Shown here piece after piece: positions 12,622 through 63,946 of a stretch of DNA of 64,000 nucleotides. Every line of letters starts with the position of its first letter. Position 1 is the stretch's first letter. The translations under genes and the position numbers were made by a program. This DNA is from Promethearchaeota archaeon (GTDB lineage Archaea > Asgardarchaeota > Lokiarchaeia > Sigyniarchaeales > SOKP01): the NCBI GenBank assembly GCA_019057865.1, contig JAHLWP010000003.1, forward strand, positions 148,192-212,191, read 5' to 3'. The notes beneath the pieces were generated by a model. It was given only the letters and a program-made list of their open reading frames with translations, was not told the DNA's origin and did no database searches.

Positions 12622-12632
12622 GTCCCATTAAT

Positions 12633-14168: not shown

Positions 14169-14204
14169 GATTTATCTAACTTAAATAACAAAATCATTAA
14201 AATC

Positions 14205-15119
14205 TTAATTACCTTTATTAACTTTCTTTTTTCGTATAAATTGGTGGACATTAAATTGGGTTCTTTCACCTGTATCTACAACTCTTCTTACTGCTTGTTT
14301 CTTACTATCTTCAATTACTTTTTGAACAGGTTGGTATTTTCTGGCTGGATTTCCAATATAAATCCAATTTGGGTCCAAAATTTGATTAATATGAGTAACT
14401 GTCCACACACCTAAGGTTGTTCCTTTACAAACAATAGTACCGGGAGTAACTATACAATTTGCTCCAAGTACAACATGATCTCCTATAATTACTTTTTTAA
14501 TTAAAAGATAGTCTATATTATCAATTCTAATAATAATACTTGAAAAAACTTGGGCAGCTTGTCCAATCATTATATTGTTTCCAAAATCAATAAATTCAAC
14601 GTCACTCCAACCATCAAACATAGTACTTTTAAAATCTGCTCTCATATCACACATTTTGAATGCAAAATTGTTTACCCAGGGAAAACAAAAATTATTCCAT
14701 ATCCAAAAGATGTATTTTTTCACAGTTACTCTTAAACAAAAAAAGTAGTAATCTCTATCATGAATATCCACTTTAAAAAGACCTTCTCTGGGTCTATGAA
14801 GTAGTTTTAAAATTATTAAAATAAACTTTCCAAAAAGCAAACTAATAAGAAGATAAGATCCCCACCATACAAAAATATCAACACCTATAACTAAAATACG
14901 CCAGTGAAAGAAATTCGAATCCATTGCAAAACCATAAAAAGTTAAAATCATCACAGAAGGCATCATAAAGGATAAAATATGTAATAATAGGAAGAGAATT
15001 ACTCCCATATAATTCCAAGTAAAAACATTAGTTGTTATAGGGATTTTTTTTATATCGATCGATTTAATATCTTCGATTCTTGAAATCGATTTTTCACTCT
15101 CCATCATATTCTCCTCCAA
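14205..15119 (-). CDS. Membrane protein with left-handed beta-helix (hexapeptide) acyltransferase-like domain
   Basis: Two TM segments, then IDFGNNIMIGQAA...VIIGDHVVLGANCIVTPGTIV...YIGNPAR. Confidence 0.85.
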   Translation of the reverse strand: MEENMMESEKSISRIEDIKSIDIKKIPITTNVFTWNYMGVILFLLLHILSFMMPSVMILTFYGFAMDSNFFHWRILVIGVDIFVWWGSYLLISLLFGKFILIILKLLHRPREGLFKVDIHDRDYYFFCLRVTVKKYIFWIWNNFCFPWVNNFAFKMCDMRADFKSTMFDGWSDVEFIDFGNNIMIGQAAQVFSSIIIRIDNIDYLLIKKVIIGDHVVLGANCIVTPGTIVCKGTTLGVWTVTHINQILDPNWIYIGNPARKYQPVQKVIEDSKKQAVRRVVDTGERTQFNVHQFIRKKKVNKGN

Positions 15120-16720
15120 AAATTTCTTTAATTTCGTTTATATCAAGTTTTTTTGCAGGGAATCCACCATATATTCCATTCTTTCCGATTTTATCATATT
15201 TAATTGTCGCACACATGGGTAATATAGTTGAATTATCTCCCATTTCCAATCCTGGCAGTGATCCATTTGAAGCACTAAAAATACAATTATTGCCAACATC
15301 TGCTCCAAAAAAAGTTAAATTTTCTTCCCCATATACACCATCAACTAAATGATTAGTAATATGGGCAAACGTCCCAATATAGCAATTTTTCCCAAAATCG
15401 ATATGGCTATGGAAAAAAGCTTCCTCAAAAATTGTATTTTTTCCAACTTGATTAGATCTTATGAATTTTAATTCCCAATTTATTAACCACGGAAATGGAG
15501 AACGTATAAATGCGAAAATTGGGTATTTGAATAAAAAGGATCTAAAATGATAATAATCTAAGACTGTAGAAGATTCATCTAAGTTTCGATCATATACGCC
15601 TTGTTCTGGTCCTCTTTCATCTGCTAATTTATAGAACCATTTTGTAAATAGAGCAACAAAAAATAAGTGCAATAAATATATTCCAATTAGAATTAAAGGA
15701 GTTAATAATAATATAATTACATTTATACTCAAAAGTGATTCTAACGATAATGTTGTTGATAAGGTATATGGAATTAACATCCCGAAAAGAAATAGGATAA
15801 ACAAAAATCCAGGAATTATAAAGGAACATCCTATAATAACCCACCCGGTAATAATGTAAAAATGAAATGGTACTGATAATTCTTTTACATATGCTCTTAA
15901 ATCTTCTTCATTAAACTCTTTTTCAATAGCTTCCTCAAAAATTAAGGTTTCAAGTGCTTCTACATTATTGCTTAAATGATTTTCCTCTAGTTTTTTAGCA
16001 GGTACGCCCTGATATACTGAATCACTTTCAAGATATTGATTAATGGTTGTCATAGATATTACATTAAGAATAGTATTTGGTTCAATTACAGTTCCGGGTA
16101 AAACGACAGCATGAGCACCAATAATTACATTATCTTTAATTATCACCTTTTTTATGATTAATTTATCTTGAACAATTATATTAGACATTATAAGGCTACC
16201 TTGACCGATTTTTACATTTTTACCAAATTCAACAAATTCACAATCAACCCACCCTTCATTTAAGGAATTAGAAAAAGATGTTTTTACTCCTAAAATTTTA
16301 AAAGCTAGAGATTCGAGCAAAGGTAAAGATAATTGACGAGCTAACCATACAGGCCATTTTTTTATAACAGATCTTAAACTCCAATAACAATAATCTTTAT
16401 CCTTTTTGTTTCTAAAAAAAACACCTTCTTTAGGTTTATGTATTAAATTTACAAAAGATACCGCGACTTTTGCAACTATAATAGAACTCAAAATTAAAAG
16501 AATAACACCTATAAAAAAAACTAAAGGAAAAAGAAAATAAAACATTAGATCCAGTTTAGGAAAATGCTGCCAGAAGTACCAAATCCATAAAATTGATGGT
16601 TGAGCGCTTAAAGTTATAATTATAAAATATAAAATTAGGTATCTTTTTTTAGCTAAAACATTTGTTGTTCTTGGTCCTTCTCGTAAAGATGCTGGAATAG
16701 AGATCTTAGATTCACTTCAT
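15094..16720 (-). CDS. Membrane protein with two TM-pair/hexapeptide units; true start probably ATG 16720 with a one-base insertion
   Basis: The frame is open upstream of 16545 to 16716 (SESKISIPASLREGPRT...TM); the ATG at 16720 is out of frame by one A. Two LbH units end in YQGVPAK and YGGFPAK. Confidence 0.8.
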
Positions 16721-16941
16721 TTTTTAGTGTAATCGGGTATAAATACTAAAAATAAAGAAATAACAGTAGTTAAATCTTTTTGTCAAAAAATCTATACTAA
16801 GAACAATTGGATTTTTTATTATTTTATTGAAATAATTGTAAAAAACTGCATTATTAAAGAAAATTGAAATACAATTTACTATTAATTCTAATAAAATTAA
16901 AGATCATTTTCATATTGTAAATTTAATGAGGATAAATAAGA

Positions 16942-18471
16942 ATGATTGAATCGTTTTTCTGGTGGACACAGGAACAAAAACTCATTTCTAATAAAGTTTC
17001 TCAGTTTGTAGATGATAACTTTGAAGAAGCTGAAAAGTACTTTTGGAATACAAAATTTCCTTGGCCATTGGTGAGAAAAGTTGCTGATGAGGGATATTTT
17101 GGAGCAGCTGTTCCTAAAAAGTATGGAGGTTTAGAATTGGGCGCAACTGGAGGTTGTATTGTTGCAGAACAATTGGGCCGTCTATATGCCGTAGGTCATG
17201 TGTTTACAGTAAGTATACTTGCTGGATTAGAACAAATATTAAGATTTGCTAATGATGACCAAAAAGAACAGTGGCTTCCGAAAATCGCAAGTGGAGAAGA
17301 ACTAGGTGCACTCTGTATCACAGAACCCTTTGCTGGATCTGACGCCGCAAACATTTTTACAACTGCAGAAAAAGATGGAGATGAGTGGGTAATAAATGGT
17401 AAAAAAAGATTTATTACGGGTGCTGGAGTTTCAGACAGATATTTTATATATGCCAAAACTAATGACGATCCCTCTATTCGTAAACAATATGGCCATTTGA
17501 CCTCTTTTATAGTAGAAAAAGGGAGACCTGGTTTTACGCTTGAAAAAATTAATCCATTAATTGGATTTGATAATGTACCAAATGGATATATTGACTTTGA
17601 AAATGTTAGAATACCAGACGAAAACCGGATTGGTGCAGTAGGGAAAGGTTGGAATGTGATGATGGCAGGGTTAAATTTTGAACGGCTTATTGGATCTGCA
17701 GTAATGATTGGTGGATTTAAAGATATAATTGCTTTATTATTTCATTACACCAGACGTAGAGTTCAATTTCGACGTACAACCAATCGTTTCCAAGGAAACG
17801 CAGATGGCATCGCTGATATTATATCTAAATATAAAATGGCTAGATTATTTTCTTATCATTGTGCAAAGCTTCTAGATGATGGGATGGAGCCCATGGTTGA
17901 TGCCTCTATTGCTAAAAAGATGAATACGGAATGGATGAGAGAAGTAGGAATAACTGCTATCCAAATTATGGGTGGTGATGGATTAACTAAATTTTATCCT
18001 GCTGAACGTATGCTTCGTGAAGGAAAGATTGGTGAAATTGTCGCAGGTACTTCAGAGATTCAAAATTTGATTATATATCGCTTCTCGGCAATGCTTCCAA
18101 TCTACAACGCAGCTTTGAGATTTAGGTGGAATGATGAGGTTAACGCACCCATTATCTCAAAAAAAGAGTCAAAATTTAAAGGATTAGAGCTTAATGAAGA
18201 AAATTTATTAAAGGTTATCGCTCATGATTATAAAGTTAATCCAGGATTATATATGACTCCAGATGATGTTAGAGAGGATATAGGTGGGAGCCGTTCGGCG
18301 ATAAGGAATATTTTTGAATCCTTAGAAAAACAAAACCTAATCGTTACCCATCGAGATCGTCAGGGTAAGATTGTTTTGGTGAAAGCCACTTATGTTGGTT
18401 TACAAAAAGCATTTCCTAAAGAATATTACCAGTGGTTTCCAGAGTGGTATGATGATTCAGATAAGTTTTAA
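16942..18471 (+). CDS. Acyl-CoA dehydrogenase with C-terminal winged-helix extension
   Basis: CITEPFAGSD, INGKKRFITGA, RRVQF and IQIMGGDG...GEIVAGTSEIQ motifs, plus an extra ~120-aa tail. Confidence 0.9.
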   Translation: MIESFFWWTQEQKLISNKVSQFVDDNFEEAEKYFWNTKFPWPLVRKVADEGYFGAAVPKKYGGLELGATGGCIVAEQLGRLYAVGHVFTVSILAGLEQILRFANDDQKEQWLPKIASGEELGALCITEPFAGSDAANIFTTAEKDGDEWVINGKKRFITGAGVSDRYFIYAKTNDDPSIRKQYGHLTSFIVEKGRPGFTLEKINPLIGFDNVPNGYIDFENVRIPDENRIGAVGKGWNVMMAGLNFERLIGSAVMIGGFKDIIALLFHYTRRRVQFRRTTNRFQGNADGIADIISKYKMARLFSYHCAKLLDDGMEPMVDASIAKKMNTEWMREVGITAIQIMGGDGLTKFYPAERMLREGKIGEIVAGTSEIQNLIIYRFSAMLPIYNAALRFRWNDEVNAPIISKKESKFKGLELNEENLLKVIAHDYKVNPGLYMTPDDVREDIGGSRSAIRNIFESLEKQNLIVTHRDRQGKIVLVKATYVGLQKAFPKEYYQWFPEWYDDSDKF

Positions 18472-18508
18472 ATAGCTTATTTTTATTTTCTTTTCTTTTA
18501 AAATTCAA

Positions 18509-18862
18509 TTATTCGATTTCAAAATCTTTAATCATATCAACCTTTTTATTAGCATCAAGAGTGATTGCGATAAGTTTTGGGTTTTCATCATCCTCATCTT
18601 CAGGATCATACATTACAAAATAAAAAATATTACCTTCACTTTCAAAACCAACTTCCATTTCACCAACTTCAGGTAATATCTTTTTAATATTATCTGGAGC
18701 ATTATCTTTAAGTATATTAAATATAGAATCTTCAAGTTTTTCCTGTTTTTTTCTTATTTCCTTAATTTTAGAGAAATCAAATTGTCCAAGAGATTCTTGA
18801 GCTTTTTTATTTAAATCATTCCATTCTTGGAACATGCTTTCCAAACTAGGTTCTGATGCCAT
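18509..18862 (-). CDS. Acidic hypothetical protein
   Basis: Clean 117-aa ORF with typical codon usage. Confidence 0.7.
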   Translation of the reverse strand: MASEPSLESMFQEWNDLNKKAQESLGQFDFSKIKEIRKKQEKLEDSIFNILKDNAPDNIKKILPEVGEMEVGFESEGNIFYFVMYDPEDEDDENPKLIAITLDANKKVDMIKDFEIE

Positions 18863-18971
18863 AAGAACTTATTTCATTTGATAAAAATAAAACTTGTTAT
18901 TATCAAGGAAATAAATATTAATTGAATATTCTTTATTAGATTATAAAATCTTAAATTAAAGGTGTTAAAAA

Positions 18972-19544
18972 ACGGCAATCCAATTTCCAAAGCCAAATTT
19001 AAAGGGTACTAAAAGCCTTGAAGAGTGTATTTTTGAACGGGAGAGTGTTAGAAGTTATAAAACCAGACCTATCGAAATTGAGAAAATTTCTCAAATTCTA
19101 TGGGCAGCACAAGGGAAAAAAGGATTTAAAAGAACAGTACCATCTGCGGGAGCTACATATCCTCTAGAAATTTACGTTATCATAAAAGATAAAGGTTTTT
19201 TTCACTATAATGTAGAAAAACATTCTTTAGAAGTAATATCAGAGGAGAAATTAGAAGAAAAACTCTCTCGTGCATCTTGGGATCAGGAATTTATCGCTCA
19301 GGCTTATTTAAATATAATAATATGTGCTGAATTCTCAAGAACTACTGAGAGATATCGTCAAAGAGGGATTAGATATGTATTTATCGAAGTTGGTCATTGT
19401 GCTCAAAATGTTCACTTAGAAGCTGTTGCATTAGGTTTAGCTTCCGTTCCAATAGGAGCATATGAAGATGATAGAGTTAAAAACGTGTTAGGACTTCCAA
19501 AAAAAATTGAGCCACTTTATATCATTCCTATCGGATATCCATAA
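18972..19544 (+). CDS. SagB/ThcOx-family nitroreductase (absent from ORF track; ACG or ATC start)
   Basis: Translates as TAIQFPKP...LEECIFERESVRSY...ILWAAQG...RTVPSAGATYPLEIY...RYVFIEVGHCAQNVHLEAVALGLASVPIGAY...PLYIIPIGYP*. In-frame TAA at 18966-18968; GGTG RBS at 18961. Confidence 0.9.
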   Translation, partial: TAIQFPKPNLKGTKSLEECIFERESVRSYKTRPIEIEKISQILWAAQGKKGFKRTVPSAGATYPLEIYVIIKDKGFFHYNVEKHSLEVISEEKLEEKLSRASWDQEFIAQAYLNIIICAEFSRTTERYRQRGIRYVFIEVGHCAQNVHLEAVALGLASVPIGAYEDDRVKNVLGLPKKIEPLYIIPIGYP

Positions 19545-19604
19545 TAATTTTAATTATTTTTAATAAGTTATTTATTAAATATTAACAGCAAAAGATAATC
19601 TTTA

Positions 19605-20411
19605 ATGCTAAACAGCAATTCCAAAATAGAAATTAAAATTGCGAATAATATCATCTATTATTTAATTATTTTTTTTATCTTCTTATTTTGGTTCTCTTAT
19701 TCTACTTATGATAATATCTCAATTCTAATTTTAATCTGTTTTTCCATTTTATCCCTAATAATTTACTCACTAATTAAAAATCTAAGGAAAGGCATGGAAT
19801 TAGGAACCAAAATTTTTCATATTTTGTTAATTTTCATTCCAATTACTTTTCTTTTAGACATAATATATTTTTATGAGCCATTTACTCCTCCTTTTTTTAT
19901 TCCCTTTTATGATTTAGTAGGTATAAAACATCAACATAACATAATTTTAATCCTACTATTGTTTTCACTAATATTTGTAAAATTAATAGGAGTTAAAATC
20001 TATTTTTCGATAAGTATGAAAATTAATACAGATTGGAAGGGAGATGAGATATTTGAATTTTTCGCTCAAGATATAATCAATAAAAAGATAATTCTTTTAA
20101 TAATTCTCTTTCCTCTTGGAGCCTTAGTGGAGGAATTTATTTACAGATGTTTATTTTTAAGCGTTTTGATTTATTTCCTCAATTGGGATCTTGTTTTTAG
20201 TATATTTTTTATTTCAGGTCTATTTGGAATAGCACATTATTCTGCTTCGAAAAATTTGGGTCATGTACTTTCTACTCTAATATCCTCCATCATTTATTTT
20301 TATGCATTAATTAATTTGGGTTTATTATATCCTTGGATATTTCATTTTCTTACAAATATTTTTGTCGTATTATTTTATGTTCAAAATAGAAAGAAAAAGT
20401 TGACTAAATGA
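19605..20411 (+). CDS. CPBP (Abi/CAAX-like) intramembrane metalloprotease
   Basis: EEFIYR, FGIAHY and IFHFLTN motifs in a multi-TM protein. Confidence 0.85.
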   Translation: MLNSNSKIEIKIANNIIYYLIIFFIFLFWFSYSTYDNISILILICFSILSLIIYSLIKNLRKGMELGTKIFHILLIFIPITFLLDIIYFYEPFTPPFFIPFYDLVGIKHQHNIILILLLFSLIFVKLIGVKIYFSISMKINTDWKGDEIFEFFAQDIINKKIILLIILFPLGALVEEFIYRCLFLSVLIYFLNWDLVFSIFFISGLFGIAHYSASKNLGHVLSTLISSIIYFYALINLGLLYPWIFHFLTNIFVVLFYVQNRKKKLTK

Positions 20412-51777: not shown

Positions 51778-52350
51778 TCAAGGGCATAAATCATATTTGT
51801 TATTTAAATTCTTTAATTCTTCCTTTGGTATGGGATTAAAATAAAGATGAATTTTAACACCACGAACAGGTTCAAGACCTTTGGTACTGGTAATTTGATT
51901 TCTGCTAAGAGTCAATTCTTCTAAACCTTCAAGGGGTTCGAGACCTTTTATTTCACTTATCTTATTTTCACTTAAGATTAAATAATAAATCTTACTAAGC
52001 CCCTCAAGTCCTTTTATCTCTTTAATTTGATTATTTCCTAAATCCAAGAATCTCAAATCTTTTAGGTTTTGAAGTCCTTTTATTTCAGTTATATTATTAT
52101 GGTCTAAATATAGATTCCATAAATTAGTTAAATTGTCAAGATCTTTAATTTCTGTAATTAAATTTGAACTAAGGGATAATCTTTTTAAATTAGTGAGAGC
52201 TCCTAATCCTCCAATCTCAGATATCTTATTTTTTGTTAAATCCAATGTCTTTAAATTTTTTAAATTTTGAAGCCCGTTAATCTGAGTAATCTTATTAAAA
52301 CTTAAATCTAAGAATTCTAAATTAATTATTTTTTCAAGACCTTCTATCTG
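51778..52350 (-). pseudogene. SDS22-type leucine-rich-repeat protein, 5'-truncated
   Basis: The LRR frame extends upstream of TTG 52245 (QIEGLEKIINLEFLDLSFNKITQINGLQNLKNLKTLDL) and begins mid-repeat at about 52350. Confidence 0.75.
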
Positions 52351-52888
52351 GTCCTTCTCTTAAATAATTTCTTGCTTTATATGTCCAAGTATAGCAATCA
52401 GTAACAAACTTATTGTATGATTTAGGTTTCATTCTATTGTCTGATGCATCATTGGTATGGAAATACATTTTAGTCTTAACTAGCATCCCATGACAGGGGA
52501 TATTATTTAATGTTAAATAGGTATAAGATTTGGCTTCAGGATTGTCAGTAGTATCAGGAGCCTCTGTTCCAATATAGAAGATCACTTTTCTTTTTTCTGT
52601 CCAAAAAATTGTGTCATCATCCTTCCACTTGGCACTAGCGATCTGATCTGCTAAAATTGCATCCAAAGCTGCTTCAGCTATCCAGTCGTGAGTACCATAG
52701 CAATATCTATACCAATCCTGAATCTCTGATTCTGTCGCAAAATTTGGATTAAACGTTGCTCTCCTTTCAGGGAAATGACCTTGAATCCTGCCGTTATTGA
52801 AACCTTGAATATCTAGCGCTAAAGGTACTAAAGCTATTAATATTTCAAAGATAATCAAAATTAATAAAAACTTTTTTCTATTCTTCAC
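52334..52888 (-). pseudogene. Secreted zinc-dependent phospholipase C/P1-nuclease-like protein, 3'-truncated
   Basis: Signal peptide, GTHDWIAEAA and GTEAPD. It ends before the expected later His/Asp ligands, running into LRR sequence. Confidence 0.55.
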
Positions 52889-52933
52889 TTTTTTATTTCA
52901 CCTTATTTATTTTTTTTACATTTTTAGATGCCA

Positions 52934-53640
52934 TTATATAAATACCCCCCAACCTTGAGTTCTATGATACCATATAAGTAAGCCTACTATTGATAGCACC
53001 ATTGTACCAACTGAATACATTAAAAGGCACGTCGAAGTTGTTAATGAGCTAGGATCATTACCACGGCCTTTAAAGAAAGACATCATAATTCCCCCTATTG
53101 TTGCCATGACAAACATCTCAATCACTTCTAAAGGTAAGTAAAGTATGTCGTACAAAATCGTGAAATCAAACCCTCCAAAGTTAAACGGAAGCATACTTAG
53201 AAAACCCTGAGCTATAGCGATATAACCTAAATAACGGAACCATAAAGAGAGCTTATCAAGGACCTGTAATACTTGTGAACCACTTTTATCTAAAAAATTG
53301 CCTACTGAAGTAAAGGCAGCACAAACCGAGGCAAATGATAAAGCTACTGATAAACCAAGTATACCGCCAAAATTACCAGATTTCTCATATTCAATAAGCA
53401 TCCATATTGCCATTCCAAGACCAGTTAAAGTCGAAATTAAAGAAATAGCCGAAGAAGCTAAAGAACTATAAGGATTGCTCCCTCTTGACACAATTAACGA
53501 AGTTAAAAACCCACCTAAAGGAAGAATTCCACCTAAGTTTGCTCCAAGGCTAAAGGCATTATACATTGAAAGAAGGCTACCTATATTCCATAACCTTTTA
53601 TTTGAATGCAATGTTGGTAGCGGATTACCCTCACTATCCT
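52934..53640 (-). pseudogene. Gly/Ser-rich multi-helix hydrophobic domain, probably the C-terminal part of a larger gene
   Basis: About 6-7 hydrophobic helices. The frame stays open upstream of TTG 53611 to 53710 with no RBS, colliding with the PIN gene. Confidence 0.5.
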
Positions 53641-54805
53641 TAGTCTCAAATCTGAACTTCCAAATGAAGATAATATCTTCATAGTTGTTGCTTATACTGT
53701 AAATAAAGAATTAGATGAATTGAAACAACGCAAAAAAAGAATTAGAAATTTACAAGGAAAATTGAAAAAATATAAAGATAAAGAATTTTCTACGGGGATT
53801 TTTTTAAAAATAATTATTTATCCAACAAAATGGTCATCATTAGAATCGGATTGGGTAGAAAAACTAGATAAAAATGATGCTGATTGTCGTATTATAGCAG
53901 AAATACTTGTCTTTAGTAAAATTCATCCAGAGGACGATATTTATTTCATAACCGCTGATAATACACCCTATTTTTTAGCAAAAGATTTGGGTATAAATAC
54001 AATTTATTGGACAGATGAAGAATTTAAAGAGATTTTTGAACGTGATGAGTCAAATATAAAAAAACCTAAGATATTAACTGATTTAATTATACATTTTGAA
54101 AATGGTGAAAAAGAAACTAGCATAACTTCTAAAATAGACTTTCCTAGTCTTGAGACCTTTATGGACCAAGAATTTCCTGAGATTTCAGAATTTAAGAATC
54201 AAGAAGAATATGCACTTAATAATGAAGATTTAACTTTAAATCAAATAGAAAAAGAGGGTTTGGAAATAACTAATATTCTAAATTCTTTTTTTTTTAAGGA
54301 TTACGAACAGTTTAGAACAGAAGTTGAAAATTATTATAATGATCTTAAGGAGTATAAAAAGTATAAGGAAATTAAATTTTGTTTATCAAATACAGGAAAT
54401 AAACCTTACAATAACGTAACTATTCAAATATTTACTCCTTTAGAAAAGGGTTTTGATATTAAGTCTAAAAATGAGATTGAAAAACCAGAGAGACCAAAAT
54501 TTGAACGTCGATTTCAATTTCAATTATCACCTACCCTTATGTCCCGTTCAATTCATTATCTTAGAGAATATAACATTAAATATATTGTACCTAAAAAGTC
54601 GGAAGAAAGGGAGAGAAATGATTTATGGGATTTTGGATATACTATAAAAAAAATTCAACATAATATAACATTAAATCTCTATTCTATTATGATTAAATTT
54701 CCAGATGATTTTAAGACGAAAAAAATATATTTTTCTTGTGGGTTTGTTCACGATGAGGAAGGTAAAACGAAAAACCAAAAGTTAAAGTTAAATATAGAAA
54801 TTTAG
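53621..54805 (+). pseudogene. PIN-domain ribonuclease-like protein, 5'-truncated, with a C-terminal beta-rich domain
   Basis: Upstream of TTG 53720 the frame reads IFIVVAYTVNKELDELK; DADCRII and FITADN follow. The first acidic DTN motif is missing (TAG at 53618-53620). Confidence 0.65.
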
Positions 54806-54834: not shown

Positions 54835-56907
54835 TTATCTCATTCTTCTTCTTGTTCTGTTTCTCAAATCCCTCAATAAATAATCCATCTTATCTATATC
54901 AAAAAAATATTCACCAAATTTAATTATATATTTATCGCTTTCAATTTCCTCATCTAATTCCCTTACTTTCCTAATAACTATCACTTCCCCTACATTATCT
55001 CTATTATTTTTTCTAAAAATTTCCTCAATTCTAGGAATATCTTTTAAAGAATACAACTCTGATCCCCCATATTCACCCACACTACAAAATATAATCTTAA
55101 GGGTTCTATAATGGGTATACTGGATTATGTTTAATAATTTAGAATAAAAAGGTAAAATTTTGTTAGTGAGGGAAGGAATTACAATATAATCAATCTTATT
55201 TTTTGAAGCCCAGCCTGAAATAACATCACTTAGACGCAAAAAATCACGACATATGAAAATCGATATGTTTCCGATAGATGTTGCGAAAATCTTGATCTTT
55301 GGAAAAATTTTGCATTCAATTTTTTCTTGGATATCTAATGAAGATATATAGACAGGTGTTTGCTTTTCCTGATAATCAATCAAACCTTTATCAATGATAA
55401 ATGCTTGGTTAGTATAATAATTATTATTAGTATTTTTCTTGTGCTCTAAGCCACCTATAATGACTACTTCATGTTCTCTTGAAATTTTTTTAAGGTATGA
55501 GATTTTACTATAAGGAACAGAGTTCTCAGGAAGAACAATCAAATCAGGTTTACCATTATGGTCATCTATAGCCATTGAAAGCATTTCATCAATTTTTGGA
55601 TTTACTCTTGACTCTAAGTTTTGATATATCAACACTTTATCAGTATTTTCCCAGAAATGTTTAATAAAAAACAAAAAATGCTCACTTTTATTAAAATTCA
55701 AATCATCGAATTTTTTAACTCCTTTTAATGAATGAATTTGAAATATATGGATGATTTTTAACGGAAAATCATCAACTTCTCTTGACAGTGTTATTTTTTC
55801 TGGTACCTCTTCAAAAAATAATAAATTTTGCATTGATTTTTGCTTGAAATGTTCCCTGTGGGTTCCAATTGCCAGAATATCTGATTCACTTAAATTACTT
55901 AATTCCATCTTGAAGATTCTAATGTTTTCTTCATAATCAAGTTTTAAATTATAATACTCCATAAATCCAGCACTACCTTGTCTTTTCATGGCAGAATATT
56001 GAACAATTCTCTGAGCATATTTGCTTTGGAGTGCTATATATTTATCATATTTCTGTAGATCAGTTTCATATAACGAAATTTTCCTCAAATTTGTTAAATC
56101 TTCTAAGTTTTTAATTTCTTTAATCGGATTATAATCAAAATATAAATGAAGTAAATCTTTTAAATTCTCTAAATTTTGTATTTCTTCTATAAAATTCTGT
56201 TCTAAGTGTAAAGATCTAAGATTAATTAACTTTTCTACTCCACTTATCTCCTTAATTCTATTTTTTGAAAGATTAAGCCATTCCAAATTTATTAAGGTTT
56301 CTAAATTTTCAATCTTCTTAATATTATTAGATGAGAAATCTAAATCTGTTAAATGAACTAAAGATTCTATATTTTCAATTCGTCCTATATTATTCTCTCC
56401 CAACCAGAGTTTATTTAAGGAAGTTAATTCTTCAATGTTTTCAATTATTTTTATTTTGTTGTTAAAAAGCATTAACTCTTGTAGATTTCTAAGGTTTTCT
56501 ATTTCCTCTATTCGTTCAATCTCATTATGTGCTAGGTATAACCACTCTAAATTAACTAAGTGTGAGATATTTTTTATCTGTGATATTTTATTTCCTGAGA
56601 TTGCAAGTTCTTTTAAATTAACCAAACGGTCAAGATTTTTAATTTCTGTAATATTATTATAAGAGAGAACTAAATCTTCTAAATTAATTAAATTTTCTAA
56701 GCTTTTTATTTCAGTTAAATTATTTTTCCATAAAGAGAGAGTCTTTAAATTATAAAGTCTTTCTAAACCAATGATCTCATCTAAGTCTGTTATCCCTCTT
56801 CCTTGAAGGTAAAGGCAATTGTTATCTACAAATATTTTCTCATCATTATATGTTACGAAATTTGTCATCAAACATTTAAGTGATTTTTGACATAATTTTA
56901 AATCCAA
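54835..56907 (-). CDS. SDS22-type LRR array fused to a C-terminal nitrilase/carbon-nitrogen hydrolase domain
   Basis: About 11 LxxLxLxxNxIxxIxxLxxL repeats; PDLIVLPE(E), QEK(K)QTP and IFIC(C)RDF catalytic triad motifs. Confidence 0.85.
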   Translation of the reverse strand: MDLKLCQKSLKCLMTNFVTYNDEKIFVDNNCLYLQGRGITDLDEIIGLERLYNLKTLSLWKNNLTEIKSLENLINLEDLVLSYNNITEIKNLDRLVNLKELAISGNKISQIKNISHLVNLEWLYLAHNEIERIEEIENLRNLQELMLFNNKIKIIENIEELTSLNKLWLGENNIGRIENIESLVHLTDLDFSSNNIKKIENLETLINLEWLNLSKNRIKEISGVEKLINLRSLHLEQNFIEEIQNLENLKDLLHLYFDYNPIKEIKNLEDLTNLRKISLYETDLQKYDKYIALQSKYAQRIVQYSAMKRQGSAGFMEYYNLKLDYEENIRIFKMELSNLSESDILAIGTHREHFKQKSMQNLLFFEEVPEKITLSREVDDFPLKIIHIFQIHSLKGVKKFDDLNFNKSEHFLFFIKHFWENTDKVLIYQNLESRVNPKIDEMLSMAIDDHNGKPDLIVLPENSVPYSKISYLKKISREHEVVIIGGLEHKKNTNNNYYTNQAFIIDKGLIDYQEKQTPVYISSLDIQEKIECKIFPKIKIFATSIGNISIFICRDFLRLSDVISGWASKNKIDYIVIPSLTNKILPFYSKLLNIIQYTHYRTLKIIFCSVGEYGGSELYSLKDIPRIEEIFRKNNRDNVGEVIVIRKVRELDEEIESDKYIIKFGEYFFDIDKMDYLLRDLRNRTRRRMR

Positions 56908-57167
56908 ATCTTAAATAATTTTTATCTAGATTCAGTATATAATTTTTATGCATTCTAATTTGAATTTTTAGAGGTTCAGGAGAAAGGTGATCATATTTTT
57001 GGTTAAGCAATTTCGATGAGATTTTTCCTAGTTATAAATATAATTCATAAATCAGAAATTTTAAGGAATAAAGTAAAGAATGAGTTAGATTATATCTCTC
57101 CTATAGTAGTGTACGGATTTTTACAAGAAAAGATCTTTTATCATAATCCAATTCTGATTCTTTTTAT

Positions 57168-60100
57168 TTAAAAAAAATCCATTAATCTAAATAAGCGTTT
57201 AAGATAGGTGAAATAGACATCCCAGAAATTCTCAAAATTTGTCTTATTAATTTTTGATAAAAACGTATACATAATAAAATCATGTGGAATATAATGTAGA
57301 ATTTTTTTCCTTCTTATAACAAATTGGTTATATAATACTTCCCAACCATAATCAAAACTTTCGCTTTTATCAAGAGTATAAAGTTTTTCAATAGATACGA
57401 ATGGAAACTCATCTTTTGGAGATTTTAATAGAGCTTTTTTGATCTTTATTTCCAAATCCTTAATTATTAGCTTCTCAAATCCCATCTTTTGTTTTTTATT
57501 GATAAAAAATTCAAAAAAAGAAAAAATAAAATCTGTATTGCTTATTTCTGTTACACTCTTATCTTTTCCTTGGTTAATAAAATATTCAAATAATTCTTCC
57601 CAATTTGCAAAAGTAACGTTGTCCAATTCATCTAACTCAGCTAAAATTTTAGGCATATCAACAGAATATTCCCTTTGCTCTGAAAGTTCTTTTTGGTCTA
57701 TTTCTTCAAAAAATGAATTGATTTTTTCAATAAATTTGGGTGGAGTTTTAAGCAATTTTGAGATCTCAGTAAAAAAAGTCTTTGGTACTTTAAGTTCTTC
57801 CCTTAGTTTATGGGAAATAATTTCTCTAGGAATGTATCTATTAATTCCAAGAGTATAATATACACTTTTAGCCAAATTTTGGTCCCATGTCAAAAGAATT
57901 TCATAAAAGCGTTTTTTTACATCAAAGATCCCAGCATGTTCCGCAATTTCTTCTGCAATGTTAAGCATATCACAAACCCTATGAAATATTTTATTGAAAT
58001 TCGAATCTTCTTTAGGAAAGTAGTGAATCATATTTTTGACCATATAAATCAAATTTTCAAGCTGGTAATCTTTTCTTGGATACAACCGGAAACCAAAAAT
58101 TTTCAATTTATCAATAAAGTAATTACGGTTTTCTTCATAAAAACTAGTGTGATCATTTTTTAATATTTCCAATACTTCCAAGATTTCATAAATCGTTGAG
58201 GAAAGATTCCAATAGCCTATTTCCTGAATAGAATAGTTTTCTTTTGCATTTTTAATTACCCATTTGACAAGATCATGATTAATCTCCTTAAAACACTTAT
58301 AAATCCTCCCAATTATTCTAATTTGACTTCTAATATCGTTAAACATGTAATTACTTTGCTTAAAATATTCAAATATTGATATTTGGAACCATTTATAAAG
58401 AAATGTATAAGGTTTAATTTCCTCTATTAAGAAAGATAAGAATCCTGAAAAATCAAAAAAAATTCTTCTCCCACTTTCGTCAATGAAATTCGAACGGTTT
58501 GCATAAAATTCAAACAAAATGGTAATCGAATCTGAGAGTGGTCTTGCTTGTATTAAATCTTTATATTCTTTATCCAATTGAATTGCTAGGTCAAAGAATG
58601 CATACTCCCACTGCATTTTTTTCGCCTTTCTTGTTAAATTTTCATGTACACGATGCATTCCTTTACATAAAACCCAAACCTTTTCTTTATCATATCCAAA
58701 TTTATCATAAAGATTTCGATAGAGAAAAGCCCTGTTTTTAATCCCTTTGTAGTGACCAGAATAGGAATATTCTAACGTGAATCCCACACCCATAAGCTTA
58801 ATAATATCATCTTCAGATAGATTATTGCTGAAATATATCCTGAAAATCTCACTGAGTGTCGAATTATTAAATATTATCTTATAAGTATTATTTTTATTCA
58901 AGAAATTCTCAAAATATTCTTTCCCTCTTATTTTACTTTCTTCATATTTCAGTTTTAAAATAATAATAACCGGATTTTCAAGTTTTATAGAATGGCGTAG
59001 TTCATCTCGATATTTATTTTTGAAAGTCAATTTTTCTGTATCTTTTAATTCCCACTTATCCCGCTCAATTAATTCATTTAATATTTCATATATTATTTCT
59101 AATGATTCTAACATTGAATTTTCTATTAGAAATTCTCCTATCATTAATAAAATTGGATAATAACGCCATCTTTCTCCTTCTAAGAGGTAAGATTTATGTT
59201 TTCCTAAAAGAAATTTTTTATAGTCAGTAATAATTTTGTTGGAATCTTTTTCAAAAATTAAAGCCACTTGTAACCATTTTTTTGTAAATTTTTTATCATA
59301 GTCTGGGTTGTGAGATACCTCAATCCAATTATGACGATTATCTTTAAAATAATCATTAATTAACAAAAAAATGTTGTTTTCTTCCTTTAAAAAGCCCTGA
59401 TCCATCATATAGAGAATATAATCAAGTTTAAATAAAGGAGAGACTTCAACAGAGTTTAAAATATTGGCACAGAGGTATAAAATATGATATTCTGAATTTT
59501 TAAAGACAAGATTTATTAAAAATATGTAATTAGGGTTTGTATCCAACTCATTTATTGCTTGTCTGAGTTCAAATTCTAACTTTAGAAGAATAATCTTGAA
59601 TGTAGTTTCAATTTCATTGTTTTCCATATAATATTCAAGTAAGTTTCCGATATCTTCAATGATATCAGCAAGATTTCTACCTTGTAGCCAGTGAGACAAA
59701 AAATAATTAACGTTAATATCAAAATCCTTGATTCTTTCTGCTTTTTTTAAATAAATTATCTTATTCCAATGTGCATATGAATCTATATTATTTTCATTAC
59801 ACCTGCTTGCTAAATCATTATAAATTTCCTTTTCTTTATCCTTTATCGAGATTCCTCCAAATTTGACGGATTTCTTCTGCAAAAATTGTTTAAAGGAATT
59901 ATGATCAAATAAGATGATATTAGAATATTGTTTAAAAAAGAATTTGAATTTTAAAATAAAGATGTCAACCTGGGTATTTTCTAACCAACTTTGTAACCAC
60001 ATCAAGTCGATAGGTCCATGGATTCTTGAAATTAAACCAGCGATTTTGTTATAATTAGAATCATCTTCAAAACCAAAGGACACCCAATATTTTTCATATA

Positions 60101-61619
60101 TATTATCCCAACCGTTAAAATCCAAATTTTCATTAATCATATGCTTATTATTTCTTAGATCGTCATAACTTTCAAAATTTTCACAGATATGCTTTAAATA
60201 TCGTGGATTTCCTTGAGTTTTGTTTAATAACACCTCTATAATTTCAAATTCTAACGGTGTCTCATTTTTAAAATACTTCATTAGGTATAGTTCGATTTCC
60301 TTTTCTGTGAAGGTGGGTATATGAAATATATTTAATTCCTTGAAATATTCTGACTGTTTATACCAGGGAATTGAATCAAAATGTTGACCGCTTACAAGAA
60401 AGATTATACGGTTAGGTAAAGTGGAAGGTTTTGGCAAATAACTAGTTAAAGGCTTAGCTAACTTTTCCATTTCTTCTTGGGTTACATGATCAATTCCATC
60501 TATTATTATTAGAACCTTTTTTTCTTTTTCCTCAGCCATTTCAGAAAGTTTATATAAATTTTCGATAAATCTCTCATTCACATCTTTAAAAGAAGTACTT
60601 CTAATATAATACCTAAATTGTTCATTTAGATCTTCATAAAAATGGTCTATTTCTCCTCTAGATCTATGACTCAATTCATTAGGATCTCGAAAACAGAGAT
60701 ATTTAAAAATATAACAATTCCTGAAAGTCTTGGTGTTTATTTCAGATTCTAAAAATGTAGATTTTCCTGTACTTGGACCTCCCTGCAAAAACAAATACCC
60801 TTTACTTCTTTTTAAAACTTCTTTAATTAGATTATCTTTCAGGCTCGGAAAAGATATATATTTTTCCTTTTCGACTGGAAAATCGTGAGGATTAGGAGAG
60901 ACACTTAATCCAAATTCTTTTAATAATAATTCTAAAGGAAAGTAACCTTTTTTCTCGGGATTCTTTTTTGTTATTAAAAACCAAGTATAAAAAGATTCAA
61001 TCTTTTTAATTTCTTCTATCGGTCTTGCTCTAGTAGGCATATACCCGAAATTAAAATTAAAGTGATCTAAAAAATTCCACAGTTCATCATTAGAAATACC
61101 AAGATGTTTTGAAAATCTATCAAGAAATTGTTGATTGATATTATCCTCAAGTATTATTTCTTTAGTAATCTTATTGTTTTTGTAAGGTATCCATATTTCA
61201 CGATAAAAAGAAGAGAAAGAAATTTTTTTATTTCTCTCCTTTGGTAAACCGCTTGTACTACTACTGGGATATTTATTAGTAACTAATTCTAATTTTAACT
61301 GATATTCTTTAAAATTCTTTCTCAATATTTTGTATGAGCTATATAACTTTTGAAATAAGGAAAATTCCTTCCCTGTTTTTATCGTGAAAAGAGCTCCTAA
61401 AGTAATTTCATCCCTAGTTTTTGAAGCTTTCGTCTGAATACAATGTAAGATATTATTGTTTAATTCAAAAACAATGTCATCCCAATTCCCAAATTTTTCA
61501 TGTTTTAGGTAAACACCTGTGAGGATGCCTTTCTCTAGATATTTATCAATATAATCACCAAAGACAGTTGCCTCAAAATCATCCCCAATTGCTTGGGAAT
61601 CATCTCCTCTTGAGCTCAA
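57168..61619 (-). CDS. PD-(D/E)xK nuclease-STAND/NACHT ATPase with long helical sensor region (Avs/AVAST-like antiviral protein)
   Basis: GDDFE...WDDIV...IQTK nuclease motif; GGPSTGKST; LIIIDGIDH; GNPRYL; ~900-aa helical C-terminus. Confidence 0.8.
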   Translation of the reverse strand: MSSRGDDSQAIGDDFEATVFGDYIDKYLEKGILTGVYLKHEKFGNWDDIVFELNNNILHCIQTKASKTRDEITLGALFTIKTGKEFSLFQKLYSSYKILRKNFKEYQLKLELVTNKYPSSSTSGLPKERNKKISFSSFYREIWIPYKNNKITKEIILEDNINQQFLDRFSKHLGISNDELWNFLDHFNFNFGYMPTRARPIEEIKKIESFYTWFLITKKNPEKKGYFPLELLLKEFGLSVSPNPHDFPVEKEKYISFPSLKDNLIKEVLKRSKGYLFLQGGPSTGKSTFLESEINTKTFRNCYIFKYLCFRDPNELSHRSRGEIDHFYEDLNEQFRYYIRSTSFKDVNERFIENLYKLSEMAEEKEKKVLIIIDGIDHVTQEEMEKLAKPLTSYLPKPSTLPNRIIFLVSGQHFDSIPWYKQSEYFKELNIFHIPTFTEKEIELYLMKYFKNETPLEFEIIEVLLNKTQGNPRYLKHICENFESYDDLRNNKHMINENLDFNGWDNIYEKYWVSFGFEDDSNYNKIAGLISRIHGPIDLMWLQSWLENTQVDIFILKFKFFFKQYSNIILFDHNSFKQFLQKKSVKFGGISIKDKEKEIYNDLASRCNENNIDSYAHWNKIIYLKKAERIKDFDINVNYFLSHWLQGRNLADIIEDIGNLLEYYMENNEIETTFKIILLKLEFELRQAINELDTNPNYIFLINLVFKNSEYHILYLCANILNSVEVSPLFKLDYILYMMDQGFLKEENNIFLLINDYFKDNRHNWIEVSHNPDYDKKFTKKWLQVALIFEKDSNKIITDYKKFLLGKHKSYLLEGERWRYYPILLMIGEFLIENSMLESLEIIYEILNELIERDKWELKDTEKLTFKNKYRDELRHSIKLENPVIIILKLKYEESKIRGKEYFENFLNKNNTYKIIFNNSTLSEIFRIYFSNNLSEDDIIKLMGVGFTLEYSYSGHYKGIKNRAFLYRNLYDKFGYDKEKVWVLCKGMHRVHENLTRKAKKMQWEYAFFDLAIQLDKEYKDLIQARPLSDSITILFEFYANRSNFIDESGRRIFFDFSGFLSFLIEEIKPYTFLYKWFQISIFEYFKQSNYMFNDIRSQIRIIGRIYKCFKEINHDLVKWVIKNAKENYSIQEIGYWNLSSTIYEILEVLEILKNDHTSFYEENRNYFIDKLKIFGFRLYPRKDYQLENLIYMVKNMIHYFPKEDSNFNKIFHRVCDMLNIAEEIAEHAGIFDVKKRFYEILLTWDQNLAKSVYYTLGINRYIPREIISHKLREELKVPKTFFTEISKLLKTPPKFIEKINSFFEEIDQKELSEQREYSVDMPKILAELDELDNVTFANWEELFEYFINQGKDKSVTEISNTDFIFSFFEFFINKKQKMGFEKLIIKDLEIKIKKALLKSPKDEFPFVSIEKLYTLDKSESFDYGWEVLYNQFVIRRKKILHYIPHDFIMYTFLSKINKTNFENFWDVYFTYLKRLFRLMDFF

Positions 61620-61887: not shown

Positions 61888-62330
61888 AAAAGAATTCAAG
61901 ATTCATTAAAATTCCCATTGTTATGTGAGGATTGTGAACAAAGAATCTCTAAATTTGAGAATTATTTTGCTGAAATGATATTCTATCCTACAGTGAATTT
62001 AAACAGCAATGATGTAAATTATGACGAAACTTTATTAAAATTTATTGGTCAGTTAATTGGAGAGTTATAAATACAATCCCTATGTTGATGAAAAAGAGTT
62101 TAAAAAAAGTTTCACGTCATTTAGTTGAATGTGAAAAGAATTGGAGAGATTATTTAAATGGAAGTATTGATAAACCATTATCTTCTCATTACTTGATTCA
62201 TACTTTGTGTGTATTAGATCATATCAAGGAATTTAAAAAGTCTTGGCAATTCTTGACACAAAGGTCAATTGCTCACAGTTTTGATAACTATGACGGAGTC
62301 GATTTTGTTTGGAGTCAATTACCTTTTTAT
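61888..62330 (+). pseudogene. Degraded HNH-endonuclease-like gene
   Basis: KRIQDSLKFPLLCEDCEQRISKFENYFAEMIFYP...LLKF, then a frameshift to ..NWRVI; 5' end missing. Confidence 0.5.
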
Positions 62331-62450
62331 TTCTATTTCCTTTACTTCCTCTTTCTCTTCTTCTTTTACTTCTTCCTTCTCTTCTTCCTTTTCTTCCTCT
62401 TTCTCTTCTTGCTTCACTTTCTTTTTCTTTTCTCTCTTTTTCTTAACCAT
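62319..62450 (-). CDS. Putative 43-aa Lys/Glu low-complexity peptide (possibly a truncated gene start)
   Basis: GAGGTG RBS, then MVKKKREKKKKVKQEEKEEEKEEEKEEVKEEEKEEVKEIEIKR*. Confidence 0.45.
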   Translation of the reverse strand: MVKKKREKKKKVKQEEKEEEKEEEKEEVKEEEKEEVKEIEIKR

Positions 62451-62651
62451 TTTTTTACACCTCTATTTTTAATTGCTTTTTATACACTTTTTAGGAATAC
62501 TCTTTATTTTTGGTCATTTAATATTTAGAGAGAACAAAATTTAAATCTTTACTTTGATGTCCAAAATGATCAATTTTAACTAATTTTTGTAGAAAAAGGA
62601 AAAAAAAAGAGATTCAAAAGTAATTAAACCGACAAAAATTTGAGTTTTTAC

Positions 62652-62804
62652 TTACTTTTCCAATTTGGTTTTAAATGGTTCGCCCTTCGTAAAAATTGTC
62701 TCATCCTTAATTCTTAAGACTTCTACGTTAGATGGTTTTTTCTCCCTGTATTCTTTTTTACCGAATTTAACGATTTCCTTCAATACCTTTCTATTGGAGA
62801 TCAT
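62652..62804 (-). CDS. Putative 50-aa basic protein
   Basis: MISNRKVLKEIVKFGKKEYREKKPSNVEVLRIKDETIFTKGEPFKTKLEK*. Confidence 0.35.
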   Translation of the reverse strand: MISNRKVLKEIVKFGKKEYREKKPSNVEVLRIKDETIFTKGEPFKTKLEK

Positions 62805-62940
62805 TATCACTAGAGAAATGATTAATTATATCTCATTTTAATTTTTAGATTATTCAGTCAAAATAAGAAATTGCTAGACTCCAACAAATTTTTAATCTTG
62901 GAAAATTGTTAAATTTATTGATTTTTTAGAGGAATATATT

Positions 62941-63213
62941 TTGGGTGAAAAATTTCTTATAGAAAATTTATTTGAATCAAAAGCTCGAATTAAAATCTTA
63001 AACATTCTGGTGAAAGAAAAAGAATTGAATATCTCATCCCTCATTAATAAGACAAGACTAAATCATACGAATGTTCAAAAACACCTAAATTTTCTTAAAA
63101 CGCGAGACTTAATCCAAGAGAAGAGATTTGGACGAATACGAATATTTAGGTATAAAAATGAAAGCATAAAATCAAGAGCATTAGAAAATTTCATACATAT
63201 TTGGGAAGATTAA
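62941..63213 (+). CDS. ArsR-like winged-helix transcription regulator
   Basis: LFESKARIKILNIL...ELNISSL...VQKHLNFL...LIQEKRFGRIRIF. Confidence 0.85.
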   Translation: MGEKFLIENLFESKARIKILNILVKEKELNISSLINKTRLNHTNVQKHLNFLKTRDLIQEKRFGRIRIFRYKNESIKSRALENFIHIWED

Positions 63214-63238
63214 TTTAATTTCTTTCATAGACCTTGCA

Positions 63239-63946
63239 CTATGTTAATAGTGGTTTCAGTAAGTTTCTGCTTCGTTTAAATCCTGTAAACTTTTCAGCAG
63301 TTTCACTACTTAAGATACTATGTTTTACTTGATAAAACACACTGCTCATTTGAATTCCTAATTTTTTACAGACCATATTGTGGCGAACTGAATTTACATC
63401 TAATTTTATCATGGTTAGTATACAGACGACTCCCGCAATAATAGTATCTGTTGTATTCATAAGTCTATTCCCGAATTTCCTTAAAAGAGAATCAGATACG
63501 TGAATAAATTTTTTATCAAAATGGAAATGGATTATTAAAGAAAGTAAAAGTCTTTGGACCATCTTGGTTCGATCCCGAGAAAAGTATTCAGGACAGTACC
63601 TTACAGCTTCCAAAAAATAAATTTTAAATTTCCTTTTGGTAAAATTTGCAACTTCGATGATTTTGTCTTTTTTAATATTTATGCATTTTATTTTAAAGAA
63701 TATATACAGTACTGCAGGAACCAATCTCTCTGCTCTTTTGTAGTATGATCTTACGTGTTCCCAAATAGTTTGATAGAATATACAGAATTCAGAATAATCT
63801 CTTTTTGCTAGGATTATATCCAGTTTTTTGACAATAAGATTTAATACTGGAATGAGAGAAAGACAATCTTTTCTTAATTTTATAATATTGCTATATTGAT
63901 CGATTTCTTCAATCATATAAGATTCAATTTCCTTTTGTGCCATCAT
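63239..63946 (-). CDS. TFIIB/cyclin-fold-like orphan protein
   Basis: Two cyclin-like repeats (LVPAVLYIFFKIKCINIKKDKIIEV; IIAGVVCIL...MVCKKLGIQMSSV); no zinc ribbon. Confidence 0.55.
   Translation of the reverse strand: MMAQKEIESYMIEEIDQYSNIIKLRKDCLSLIPVLNLIVKKLDIILAKRDYSEFCIFYQTIWEHVRSYYKRAERLVPAVLYIFFKIKCINIKKDKIIEVANFTKRKFKIYFLEAVRYCPEYFSRDRTKMVQRLLLSLIIHFHFDKKFIHVSDSLLRKFGNRLMNTTDTIIAGVVCILTMIKLDVNSVRHNMVCKKLGIQMSSVFYQVKHSILSSETAEKFTGFKRSRNLLKPLLT

Follow-up and report, generated by a model that had tools for sequence, protein, structure and literature searches.

An Avs3-like nuclease-STAND gene beside an LRR-nitrilase gene in a Lokiarchaeial genome: probably two separate immune receptors

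The antiviral STAND proteins Avs3 and Avs4 recognise phage proteins by direct binding. In the Avs2-trypsin system the Avs-fused protease cleaves and thereby activates a separately encoded metallo-beta-lactamase (MBL) partner, and the genes form an operon. The nitrilase of DRT1 is an abortive-infection effector which needs tetramerisation and whose substrate is still to be found, and in DRT11 (UG5) a reverse transcriptase (RT) and a nitrilase suffice for defence. The present study concerns two neighbouring genes in 64,000 nucleotides of DNA from a Promethearchaeota archaeon (contig JAHLWP010000003.1, positions 148,192 to 212,191; the whole stretch is called the window below). One gene encodes a nuclease-STAND protein of 1483 amino acids (aa) and the other a fusion of leucine-rich repeats (LRRs) to a nitrilase domain. 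The initial annotation of the window proposed that the STAND switch and the LRR-effector act as one sensor/executor system, a split form of the eukaryotic NLR. From the comparison of the two families it was concluded that the genes probably encode two autonomous single-gene immune receptors and are neighbours in a variable defence region close to the end of a contig. The reason is that each family usually occurs without the other, and the adjacency is most likely due to co-residence of immune genes in islands and not to an obligate partnership.

Domain architecture and closest described systems

The 1483-aa protein is a single chain in which a predicted nuclease effector and an NTPase switch precede a C-terminal region that is long and conserved. 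With a nuclease of its own and about 845 aa of C-terminal sequence, it is not the sensor-less half of an NLR. The N-terminal domain matched the PADLOC model PDLC00741 'Effector endonuclease' (CBASS/Cap4-type) with an E value of 1.3e-8 and SAVED-PDDEXK with an E value of 2.7e-6, and the central part matched the Avs1b NTPase module of NCBIfam (E 3e-14). Pfam scores for NPHP3_N (24.2 bits) and NACHT (22.4 bits) were slightly below the Pfam cut-offs, and a PF05729 search of the genome gave the protein 27.3 bits. In an alignment with 15 relatives D47 and D48 of the nuclease were nearly invariant and Q62-x-K64 invariant. The same alignment showed invariance of G285, K286 and S287 in the Walker A motif GPSTGKST (G280-T288) and of D374 and D377 in the Walker B motif IIDGIDH (from I372). 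G470-N-P472 was invariant inside the archaeal family; G470 and P472 were also invariant in the wider alignment, where N471 was not listed. PADLOC, NCBIfam and the alignment hereby agreed with the nuclease, Walker A/B and GNP motif as first annotated.

The AlphaFold2 model of residues 1-700 (pLDDT 82.5) had its closest fold match in terminase-bound SeAvs3 (8dgc_A; Foldseek, E 7e-18, 748 columns), followed by plant and animal NLRs, Apaf-1/Dark, Avs4 and Avs5. The nuclease domain falls inside the SeAvs3 alignment, and a TM-score to 8dgc_A of 0.37 by query indicates that the domain orientation differs from that of 8dgc_A. A search of PDB sequences with the STAND profile gave no match. The C-terminal region was conserved over its full length, with a mean identity of 45-48% compared to 58-61% in the N-terminal half, and its 845 aa had no match in Pfam, PDB sequences or Atlas features. 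Such faster divergence is the pattern expected of a sensor domain, and this is the presumed role of the region.

The protein resembles Avs3 (SeAvs3, 8dgc) in that one chain runs from a Cap4-type nuclease through a STAND NTPase to a long C-terminal part, and in being encoded by a single gene of patchy distribution. It differs in being about 540 aa shorter, in a C-terminal part without detectable TPR or similarity to SeAvs3, and in its archaeal hosts (Lokiarchaeia, Helarchaeota). None of the curated Avs3 models in PADLOC and NCBIfam matched, and the one Avs match, a partial one of the NTPase to NCBIfam Avs1b, reached 51 bits against a cut-off of 1500. Since no curated Avs model was passed, the protein is named Avs3-like and is not classed as a member of Avs1-5. 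Its family is small and archaeal, comprising ten clusters at 41-64% identity and a 30% relative in a Helarchaeota metagenome-assembled genome (MAG), and full-length members were found in two of 400 Asgard reference genomes. Next in sequence similarity are proteins about 2020 aa long, the size of SeAvs3, with N-terminal halves 24-29% identical, and those with a named source are Bacteroidota (Sphingobacterium, Cruoricaptor). The family is single-copy in this genome (G000), where a hidden Markov model of the family NTPase and jackhmmer found no paralogue. A Pfam NACHT search of the same genome gave a second, unrelated STAND gene on contig C56 (9520-13128; L113:7521-11129). It encodes a REase-like (HSDR_N_2/MmeI_N)-NACHT-HEAT protein of 1202 aa, with the layout of proteins at the loci L015 and L116, and has no LRR neighbour.

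The protein encoded next to the STAND gene was annotated as about 11 LRRs followed by a nitrilase domain with an intact E-K-C triad. Both the AlphaFold2 model (pLDDT 87.7, pTM 0.80) and an alignment of 34 homologues supported this assignment. Eleven evenly spaced 22-residue LRR strands were seen in the model at residues 56-278, and the best structural matches of the LRR part were SDS22 (Z 33.9, rmsd 2.1, 280 residues) and internalin A. The fold searches were run with the whole model, and the match list was filled by LRR proteins. Repeat number and the non-scaffold, surface positions of the LRRs vary among the homologues, which are 555-884 aa long, and the LRR domain is predicted to be a ligand sensor. 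The middle domain has no Pfam match. Its motifs IGTHxE, HSLKG and FW are conserved in the 34 homologues, and the domain is kept in the few family members of 400-466 aa that lack the LRRs.

The nitrilase domain is the best-conserved part of the protein (54% identity). It passed the Pfam CN_hydrolase cut-off of 23.2 bits marginally, with 23.8 bits. The best PADLOC matches were RTasNitrilase (E 2.5e-18, 199 residues), RT_UG5-nitrilase (E 3.5e-5) and Drt1a (E 1.7e-4), in keeping with the link to the defence nitrilase of DRT1 made in the initial annotation; PADLOC also models a CARF-nitrilase fusion. In the catalytic tetrad E461-K515-E488-C553, the residues E461, E488 and K515 were invariant among the 34 homologues and C553 was conserved in at least 90%. 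A search of PDB sequences with the nitrilase half gave no match. No signal peptide or membrane helix was evident in the sequence or the model, and the protein is predicted to be cytoplasmic. Nitrilase domains about 27% identical to that of the LRR-nitrilase were observed elsewhere in the genome in three ORFs of about 1280 aa (C9:33975-34541, C45:27900-28442 and C45:23964-24467), whose size alone suggests RT-nitrilase proteins (DRT class 3-like).

Judged by its sequence, the nitrilase belongs to one defence-associated radiation with those of DRT1 and UG5, the tetrad being intact. The regulatory module is different, in that an LRR solenoid and the middle domain replace the RT and DNA adducts. 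A further difference is that the LRR-nitrilase was seen only in Asgard-labelled records and unlabelled metagenome contigs. No RT was found in the LRR-nitrilase or in the open reading frames (ORFs) at 45.6-64 kb of the window, and because none is fused or adjacent the protein is not a DRT. It shares with Toll-like LRR+TIR proteins an LRR sensor fused straight to an effector without an NTPase, and TIR+LRR proteins occur in the same genome. It is unlike them in its predicted cytoplasmic location and in the nitrilase as effector. The likeness is one of domain logic only, homology being claimed for the LRR alone.

The LRR-nitrilase family comprised 89 clusters in a large protein collection; all source labels were Asgard and the rest were unlabelled metagenome contigs. 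Some members carry an additional HNH nuclease. The LRR-effector fusions in these archaea also include HNH + nitrilase, HEPN, TIR and PD-T4-6-like kinase forms, a variety which fits the LRR as a portable sensor in single-chain receptors. Five LRR ORFs were observed on one 25-kb contig of the genome (C38), among them L053:2564-3880 and L064:7631-9403. The products include a TIR_2+LRR protein (590 aa) and an LRR protein of 438 aa that weakly matches CAP12/Pycsar-type TIR, which are Toll-like domain combinations in a Lokiarchaeial genome.

Genomic contexts of the two families

Eleven distinct LRR-nitrilase contexts were compared. A STAND neighbour was present in three (the window, L019 and L015) and missing from the other eight. 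The LRR-nitrilase lay beside type I restriction-modification (RM) genes in L006 and beside type I RM, SLFN and NYN genes in L008. It was part of a TIR/LD_cluster3 gene cluster in L010, stood next to an SMC/LmuB-like ATPase and a methylase in L016, and next to PIN toxins, a group II intron RT and an integrase in L118. STAND genes were also missing from L014 and L017. Most contexts were defence or mobile-element neighbourhoods, and one, L117/L013, consisted of plain metabolic genes. A gene for an Anti-Pycsar Apyc1-like metallo-beta-lactamase was observed in L117 (6216-6959), directly upstream of the LRR-nitrilase homologue.

The metabolic surroundings in L117/L013 could be explained if the LRR-nitrilase were a housekeeping or signalling amidase or acyltransferase, with the LRR as an adaptor to a cellular substrate and the STAND adjacency as a coincidence. 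SDS22-type LRRs are regulatory adaptors in eukaryotes, and a weak similarity to apolipoprotein N-acyltransferase was detected (NCBIfam TIGR00546, E 3.4e-5). This non-immune role is very unlikely. The defence nitrilases of PADLOC matched far better than the metabolic models, the repeat number and surface residues of the LRR are variable, and a variant with an added HNH nuclease exists. The distribution is patchy, with an orthologue in seven of 400 Asgard genomes and in six of 135 within the same archaeal family, and defence or mobile-element genes dominate in most contexts.

In two contexts outside the window the LRR-nitrilase had a STAND neighbour. The order in L019 was LRR-nitrilase, a 262-aa gene without PADLOC or Pfam match, and then a STAND gene of the same family as in the window. 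In L015 (G153:C56, 1690-11884) the LRR-nitrilase gene was convergent with, and 31 bp from, a gene for a 1259-aa HSDR_N_2 (REase-like)-NACHT protein. Upstream on the NACHT strand were genes for a 541-aa LRR protein and for a product of more than 773 aa without assigned family. No relationship between the STAND family and the L015 NACHT protein was found by hhalign, and the latter was therefore treated as a separate STAND family.

Ten distinct contexts were compared for the STAND family. In four of them (the window, L019, L036 and L020) an internalin-type LRR gene was present at a distance of up to 3 kb. This becomes five of ten if L024 is counted, where a PD-T4-6-like kinase with weak LRR matches is encoded directly upstream of the STAND gene. 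No LRR gene was present in L021, L022, L023, L025 and L026. The STAND gene was located among housekeeping genes in L020 and L021, and among SLFN, HEPN-helicase, TIR and MmeI-type RM genes in L022, L023 and L026. The LRR gene in L020 had no effector domain and was divergent from the STAND gene, with two genes between them. In L036 an LRR-HEPN/Hypoth_Ymh gene was directly upstream of the STAND gene, with a gap of 288 bp. The latter locus (L018/L036; Helarchaeota genome G128, contig 1, bases 1-20000) was observed to be a dense defence island. A co-directional run encodes an Upx-like protein (1254 aa), the LRR-HEPN (Hypoth_Ymh) protein (398 aa), the Avs3-like STAND (1471 aa) and a TIR protein (410 aa), and is followed by genes for a TIR-LeuA_dimer protein, a type IIG RM enzyme and a stand-alone DRT-type nitrilase of 462 aa.

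The order of the genes was not conserved, the LRR gene being downstream of the STAND gene in the window and upstream elsewhere. Gaps between STAND and LRR genes ranged from 205 to 794 bp, and the enzyme of the LRR partner was a nitrilase, HEPN, a PD-T4-6-like kinase or none. No other neighbour was found to be conserved across the STAND contexts. In a maximum-likelihood tree of the STAND family the LRR-positive contexts were scattered, and L019 was the sister of the LRR-free L026 (support 100/100). The initial annotation had named repeated adjacency of homologues across Asgard genomes as a check. Homologues were mostly apart, and G128, the one further reference genome with members of both families, has its LRR-nitrilase on contig 3 and its STAND on contig 1. 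A complex prediction with STAND residues 1-700 and LRR residues 15-300 scored 0.00 against a mark of 0.32 and is no evidence either way.

With the partners mostly apart, and order, spacing and enzyme varying, a two-gene system fails the comparative test, and the pair does not have the properties of an obligate two-gene system. An operon in which the LRR-nitrilase is sensor and executor, the STAND is the switch and neither works alone is extremely improbable. The same-strand adjacency in the window is consistent with it, as are the retention of the adjacency in close strains from two other studies and the second co-occurrence of both families in L019. These are outweighed by the failure of co-occurrence in both directions, by the unlinked families in G128 and by the reversed order and intervening gene in L019. 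The STAND moreover keeps its own nuclease and C-terminal region, and nitrilase members without LRRs exist. The comparative data contradict the obligate form of the split NLR.

The initial annotation took as its premise that a STAND ATPase and LRRs are joined in one chain in eukaryotic NLRs. This needs correcting in that NACHT-LRR fusions occur outside eukaryotes too, as bNACHT16 is a bacterial NACHT protein with C-terminal LRRs. NLRs and bNACHT16 resemble the locus in that a NACHT-type switch and an LRR are both present, each a component of intracellular immune receptors. Unlike these, the window has two polypeptides that are mostly encoded apart, and the C-terminal region of the STAND is non-LRR. 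None of 11 large NACHT ORFs from ten related genomes and a second contig of this genome contained LRRs.

The genome has 15-20 LRR ORFs in 4.26 Mb, so that with random placement a gene would have an LRR within 3 kb in about 3% of cases; the ORFs are clumped, however, as on the 25-kb contig described above. As a control for residence in islands, an identical LRR detector was applied to 40 SLFN_AlbA_2 genes, which came from genomes of the same archaeal family. All adjacency statistics come from small samples, and the contexts are related by descent. Several results weigh against simple co-residence. An LRR was present within 3 kb of four of ten STAND genes and of three of 40 control genes (Fisher one-sided p 0.02), and within 5 kb of four of ten and four of 40, respectively (Fisher p 0.04). 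A NACHT gene abutted two of six LRR-nitrilase orthologues in the same archaeal family, whereas none of 56 SLFN genes was even on one contig with a NACHT gene (Fisher p about 0.008, calculated by hand). Five of six adjacent or near-adjacent STAND-LRR pairs were co-directional, the divergent one being L020. To these are added the kinase-LRR gene directly upstream of the STAND in L024, a TPR-LRR gene directly upstream of a distant relative of 2020 aa (L028), and the LRR-nitrilase 31 bp from the unrelated REase-NACHT gene of L015, which has an LRR gene upstream itself. Avs2-trypsin and its MBL set a precedent for cooperation of an Avs with an effector from another gene.

These observations could be due to a looser partnership, in which Asgard Avs-like STANDs cooperate facultatively with exchangeable LRR-effector neighbours (nitrilase, HEPN, kinase). 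The LRR protein could widen the range of triggers, or could be a second effector arm switched on by the STAND oligomer. The enrichment of LRRs beside STANDs, the mostly co-directional orientation and the cases of L015 and L028 all favour such a cooperation in trans. Contexts with an LRR gene are spread over at least three clades and the Helarchaeota outgroup, with differing partner enzymes, which argues for repeated juxtaposition and not for one inherited arrangement. Support is also given by L108 (G266:C33, 8731-15257), where a gene for a 1846-aa SIR2-NACHT-TPR protein of Avs5-like layout is followed after 105 bp by a gene for a 293-aa zinc-ribbon+LRR protein. A homologue of this SIR2-NACHT-TPR protein (1845 aa) was observed in L109 (G270) without an LRR neighbour.

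Facultative cooperation is nevertheless a somewhat unlikely explanation. The partner is missing from half of the STAND contexts and from eight of the 11 LRR-nitrilase contexts, the order is not conserved, and a gene intervenes in L019. Among the 13 large NACHT genes that the archaeal family has, an LRR neighbour was seen in only three cases (the window, L015 and L108). LRR genes clump anyway, and island structure could therefore account for the enrichment. The precedent also differs from the window. Both would have an Avs working with a separately encoded effector, but the terminal effector of the window STAND is a nuclease and not a protease that processes a partner, it has its own C-terminal domain, and its neighbour is neither conserved nor tightly linked. 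For the proposed single sensor/executor system, the conserved pair was not upheld, and the more frequent adjacency speaks for a link of some kind. The association of STAND and LRR genes appears real but modest, and is explained either by shared immune-gene islands or by a facultative functional link. Two autonomous receptors remain the preferred reading.

The locus and its neighbouring genes

Contig C54, whose last 64 kb form the window, belongs to a genome of 4.26 Mb in 87 contigs, and the pair lies 2.4 kb from the contig end. The G+C content is about 25-27% across the whole window. The apparent Asgard origin of the DNA was supported by the labels of homologues (Promethearchaeota, Lokiarchaeota) and by the fact that one genome with both families is a Helarchaeota MAG. 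Both ORFs, their minus-strand orientation and the gap of about 260 bp, counted from TTG, were as annotated (Table 1).

Table 1. Position and basis of the features at the STAND/LRR-nitrilase locus, in window coordinates
Feature	Position	Strand	Basis or remark
Avs3-like nuclease-STAND gene, 1483 aa, TTG start	57168..61619	-	ORF and translation
N-terminal Cap4/PD-(D/E)xK-type nuclease, residues 35-196, predicted effector	61032..61517	-	PADLOC PDLC00741
STAND (NACHT-like) NTPase module, residues 243-629	59733..60893	-	NCBIfam Avs1b module and motifs
C-terminal region, about 845 aa, residues 640-1483, family-specific, presumed sensor	57171..59702	-	Conservation
Spacer between STAND and LRR-nitrilase	56869..57167	-	299 bp to ATG 56868, 260 bp to TTG 56907
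LRR-nitrilase gene (P0002)	54835..56868	-	676 aa from ATG, 690 aa from TTG at 56907; ORF and translation
LRR domain, residues 40-290, 11 repeats of 22 residues, SDS22/internalin type	56038..56790	-	Pfam LRR_4 E 9.6e-38
Family-specific middle domain, residues 300-420, helices and small sheet	55648..56010	-	Conserved motifs
Nitrilase-superfamily domain, residues 423-650, predicted effector	54958..55641	-	PADLOC, Pfam, tetrad
Second LRR gene, 2.6 kb downstream, apparently frameshift-broken	51778..52888	-	184-aa and 155-aa ORFs

The LRR-nitrilase probably starts at the ATG and not at the upstream TTG, because Met14, which this ATG encodes, was nearly invariant in the alignment of 34 homologues and because P0003, a homologue 94% identical to the LRR-nitrilase, is 676 aa long. 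By direct reading of the spacer a TATA-like box, TTTAAAATTA, was found about 29 nt 5' of the ATG, and no Shine-Dalgarno-like motif was present. This combination fits a promoter and a leaderless mRNA of its own for the LRR-nitrilase, although a TATA-like box is weak evidence in DNA of 25% G+C.

Contigs of four runs were compared with the locus; no RNA run was among those listed for it. The arrangement is not an artefact of assembly, since DNA contigs from two independent studies bridged the spacer, and the STAND/LRR-nitrilase adjacency was retained in strains about 97-100% identical. Contig joints that hinted at deletions were disregarded, as their sides were just 20-24 letters long. In run X3 the word depth was about 85-100 for contigs at 46.0-51.4 kb and about 10 at 52.6-62.3 kb. 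This drop suggests that the stretch with the LRR genes and the STAND is strain-variable and carried by part of the population. Spots of high depth at 50.8-51.4 and 62.2-62.8 kb were low-complexity T/CT-rich DNA. The island is marked neither by direct or inverted repeats at its flanks nor by a tRNA.

The 184-aa ORF of the second LRR locus (52334-52888) has an N-terminal hydrophobic helix and no family match. The 155-aa LRR-only ORF (51778-52245) matched LRR_4 with an E value of 8e-23, and LRR coding runs about 25 codons upstream of its start in another frame. The two ORFs are apparently one LRR gene split by a frameshift. No PADLOC or Pfam match was obtained for the small neighbours at 52334-54805 and 62082-63946.

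Proposed mechanism and significance

In the preferred reading, and as the analogy of Avs3 and Avs4 suggests, the C-terminal region of the STAND would recognise a conserved protein of the virus. Recognition would cause the NACHT-like module to oligomerise in an ATP-dependent manner and to bring the Cap4-like nuclease domains together, whereupon DNA would be cut and the infection aborted. The LRR-nitrilase would be a separate receptor-effector fusion without an NTPase, in which the variable LRR solenoid binds a viral or other foreign protein. Ligand binding may drive or release assembly of the nitrilase, most likely oligomerisation, which nitrilases need and for which DRT1 offers an analogy. The assembled nitrilase may hydrolyse an essential metabolite with an amide or nitrile group, or may alternatively deamidate the LRR-bound protein.

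The claim that no system with this pairing has been described agreed with the literature searched, in which no description of the LRR-nitrilase architecture was found either. Surveys of Asgard defence and of STAND/NACHT proteins that were searched mention no LRR-nitrilase and no LRR-effector partners of Avs. Neither of the two families was present in the IMG/VR viral contigs searched. New here is an archaeal Avs3-like STAND family with a new C-terminal region, located beside a new sensor-effector fusion.

With the STAND gene, the known antiviral STANDs gain an archaeal Avs3-like family, which is the ordinary part of the finding. The LRR-nitrilase is of more interest, as a sensor fold of eukaryotic innate immunity is joined to an effector characterised so far in bacterial RT systems, and it belongs to a wider set of LRR-effector proteins in Asgard defence islands that includes TIR+LRR. 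If these are real receptors, they would represent LRR-based, NTPase-independent pathogen sensing in the archaeal lineage nearest to eukaryotes, and the LRR-nitrilase would be a single-chain system well suited to a search for the substrate of defence nitrilases. An unlikely extension is that Asgard archaea have a class of NTPase-less LRR-effector receptors (nitrilase, HNH, HEPN, TIR, PD-T4-6-like kinase) which team up in trans with Avs-like nuclease-STANDs. Such a class would, if it exists, be a modular, non-covalent forerunner or analogue of the NLR architecture, present in those prokaryotes that are most closely related to eukaryotes.

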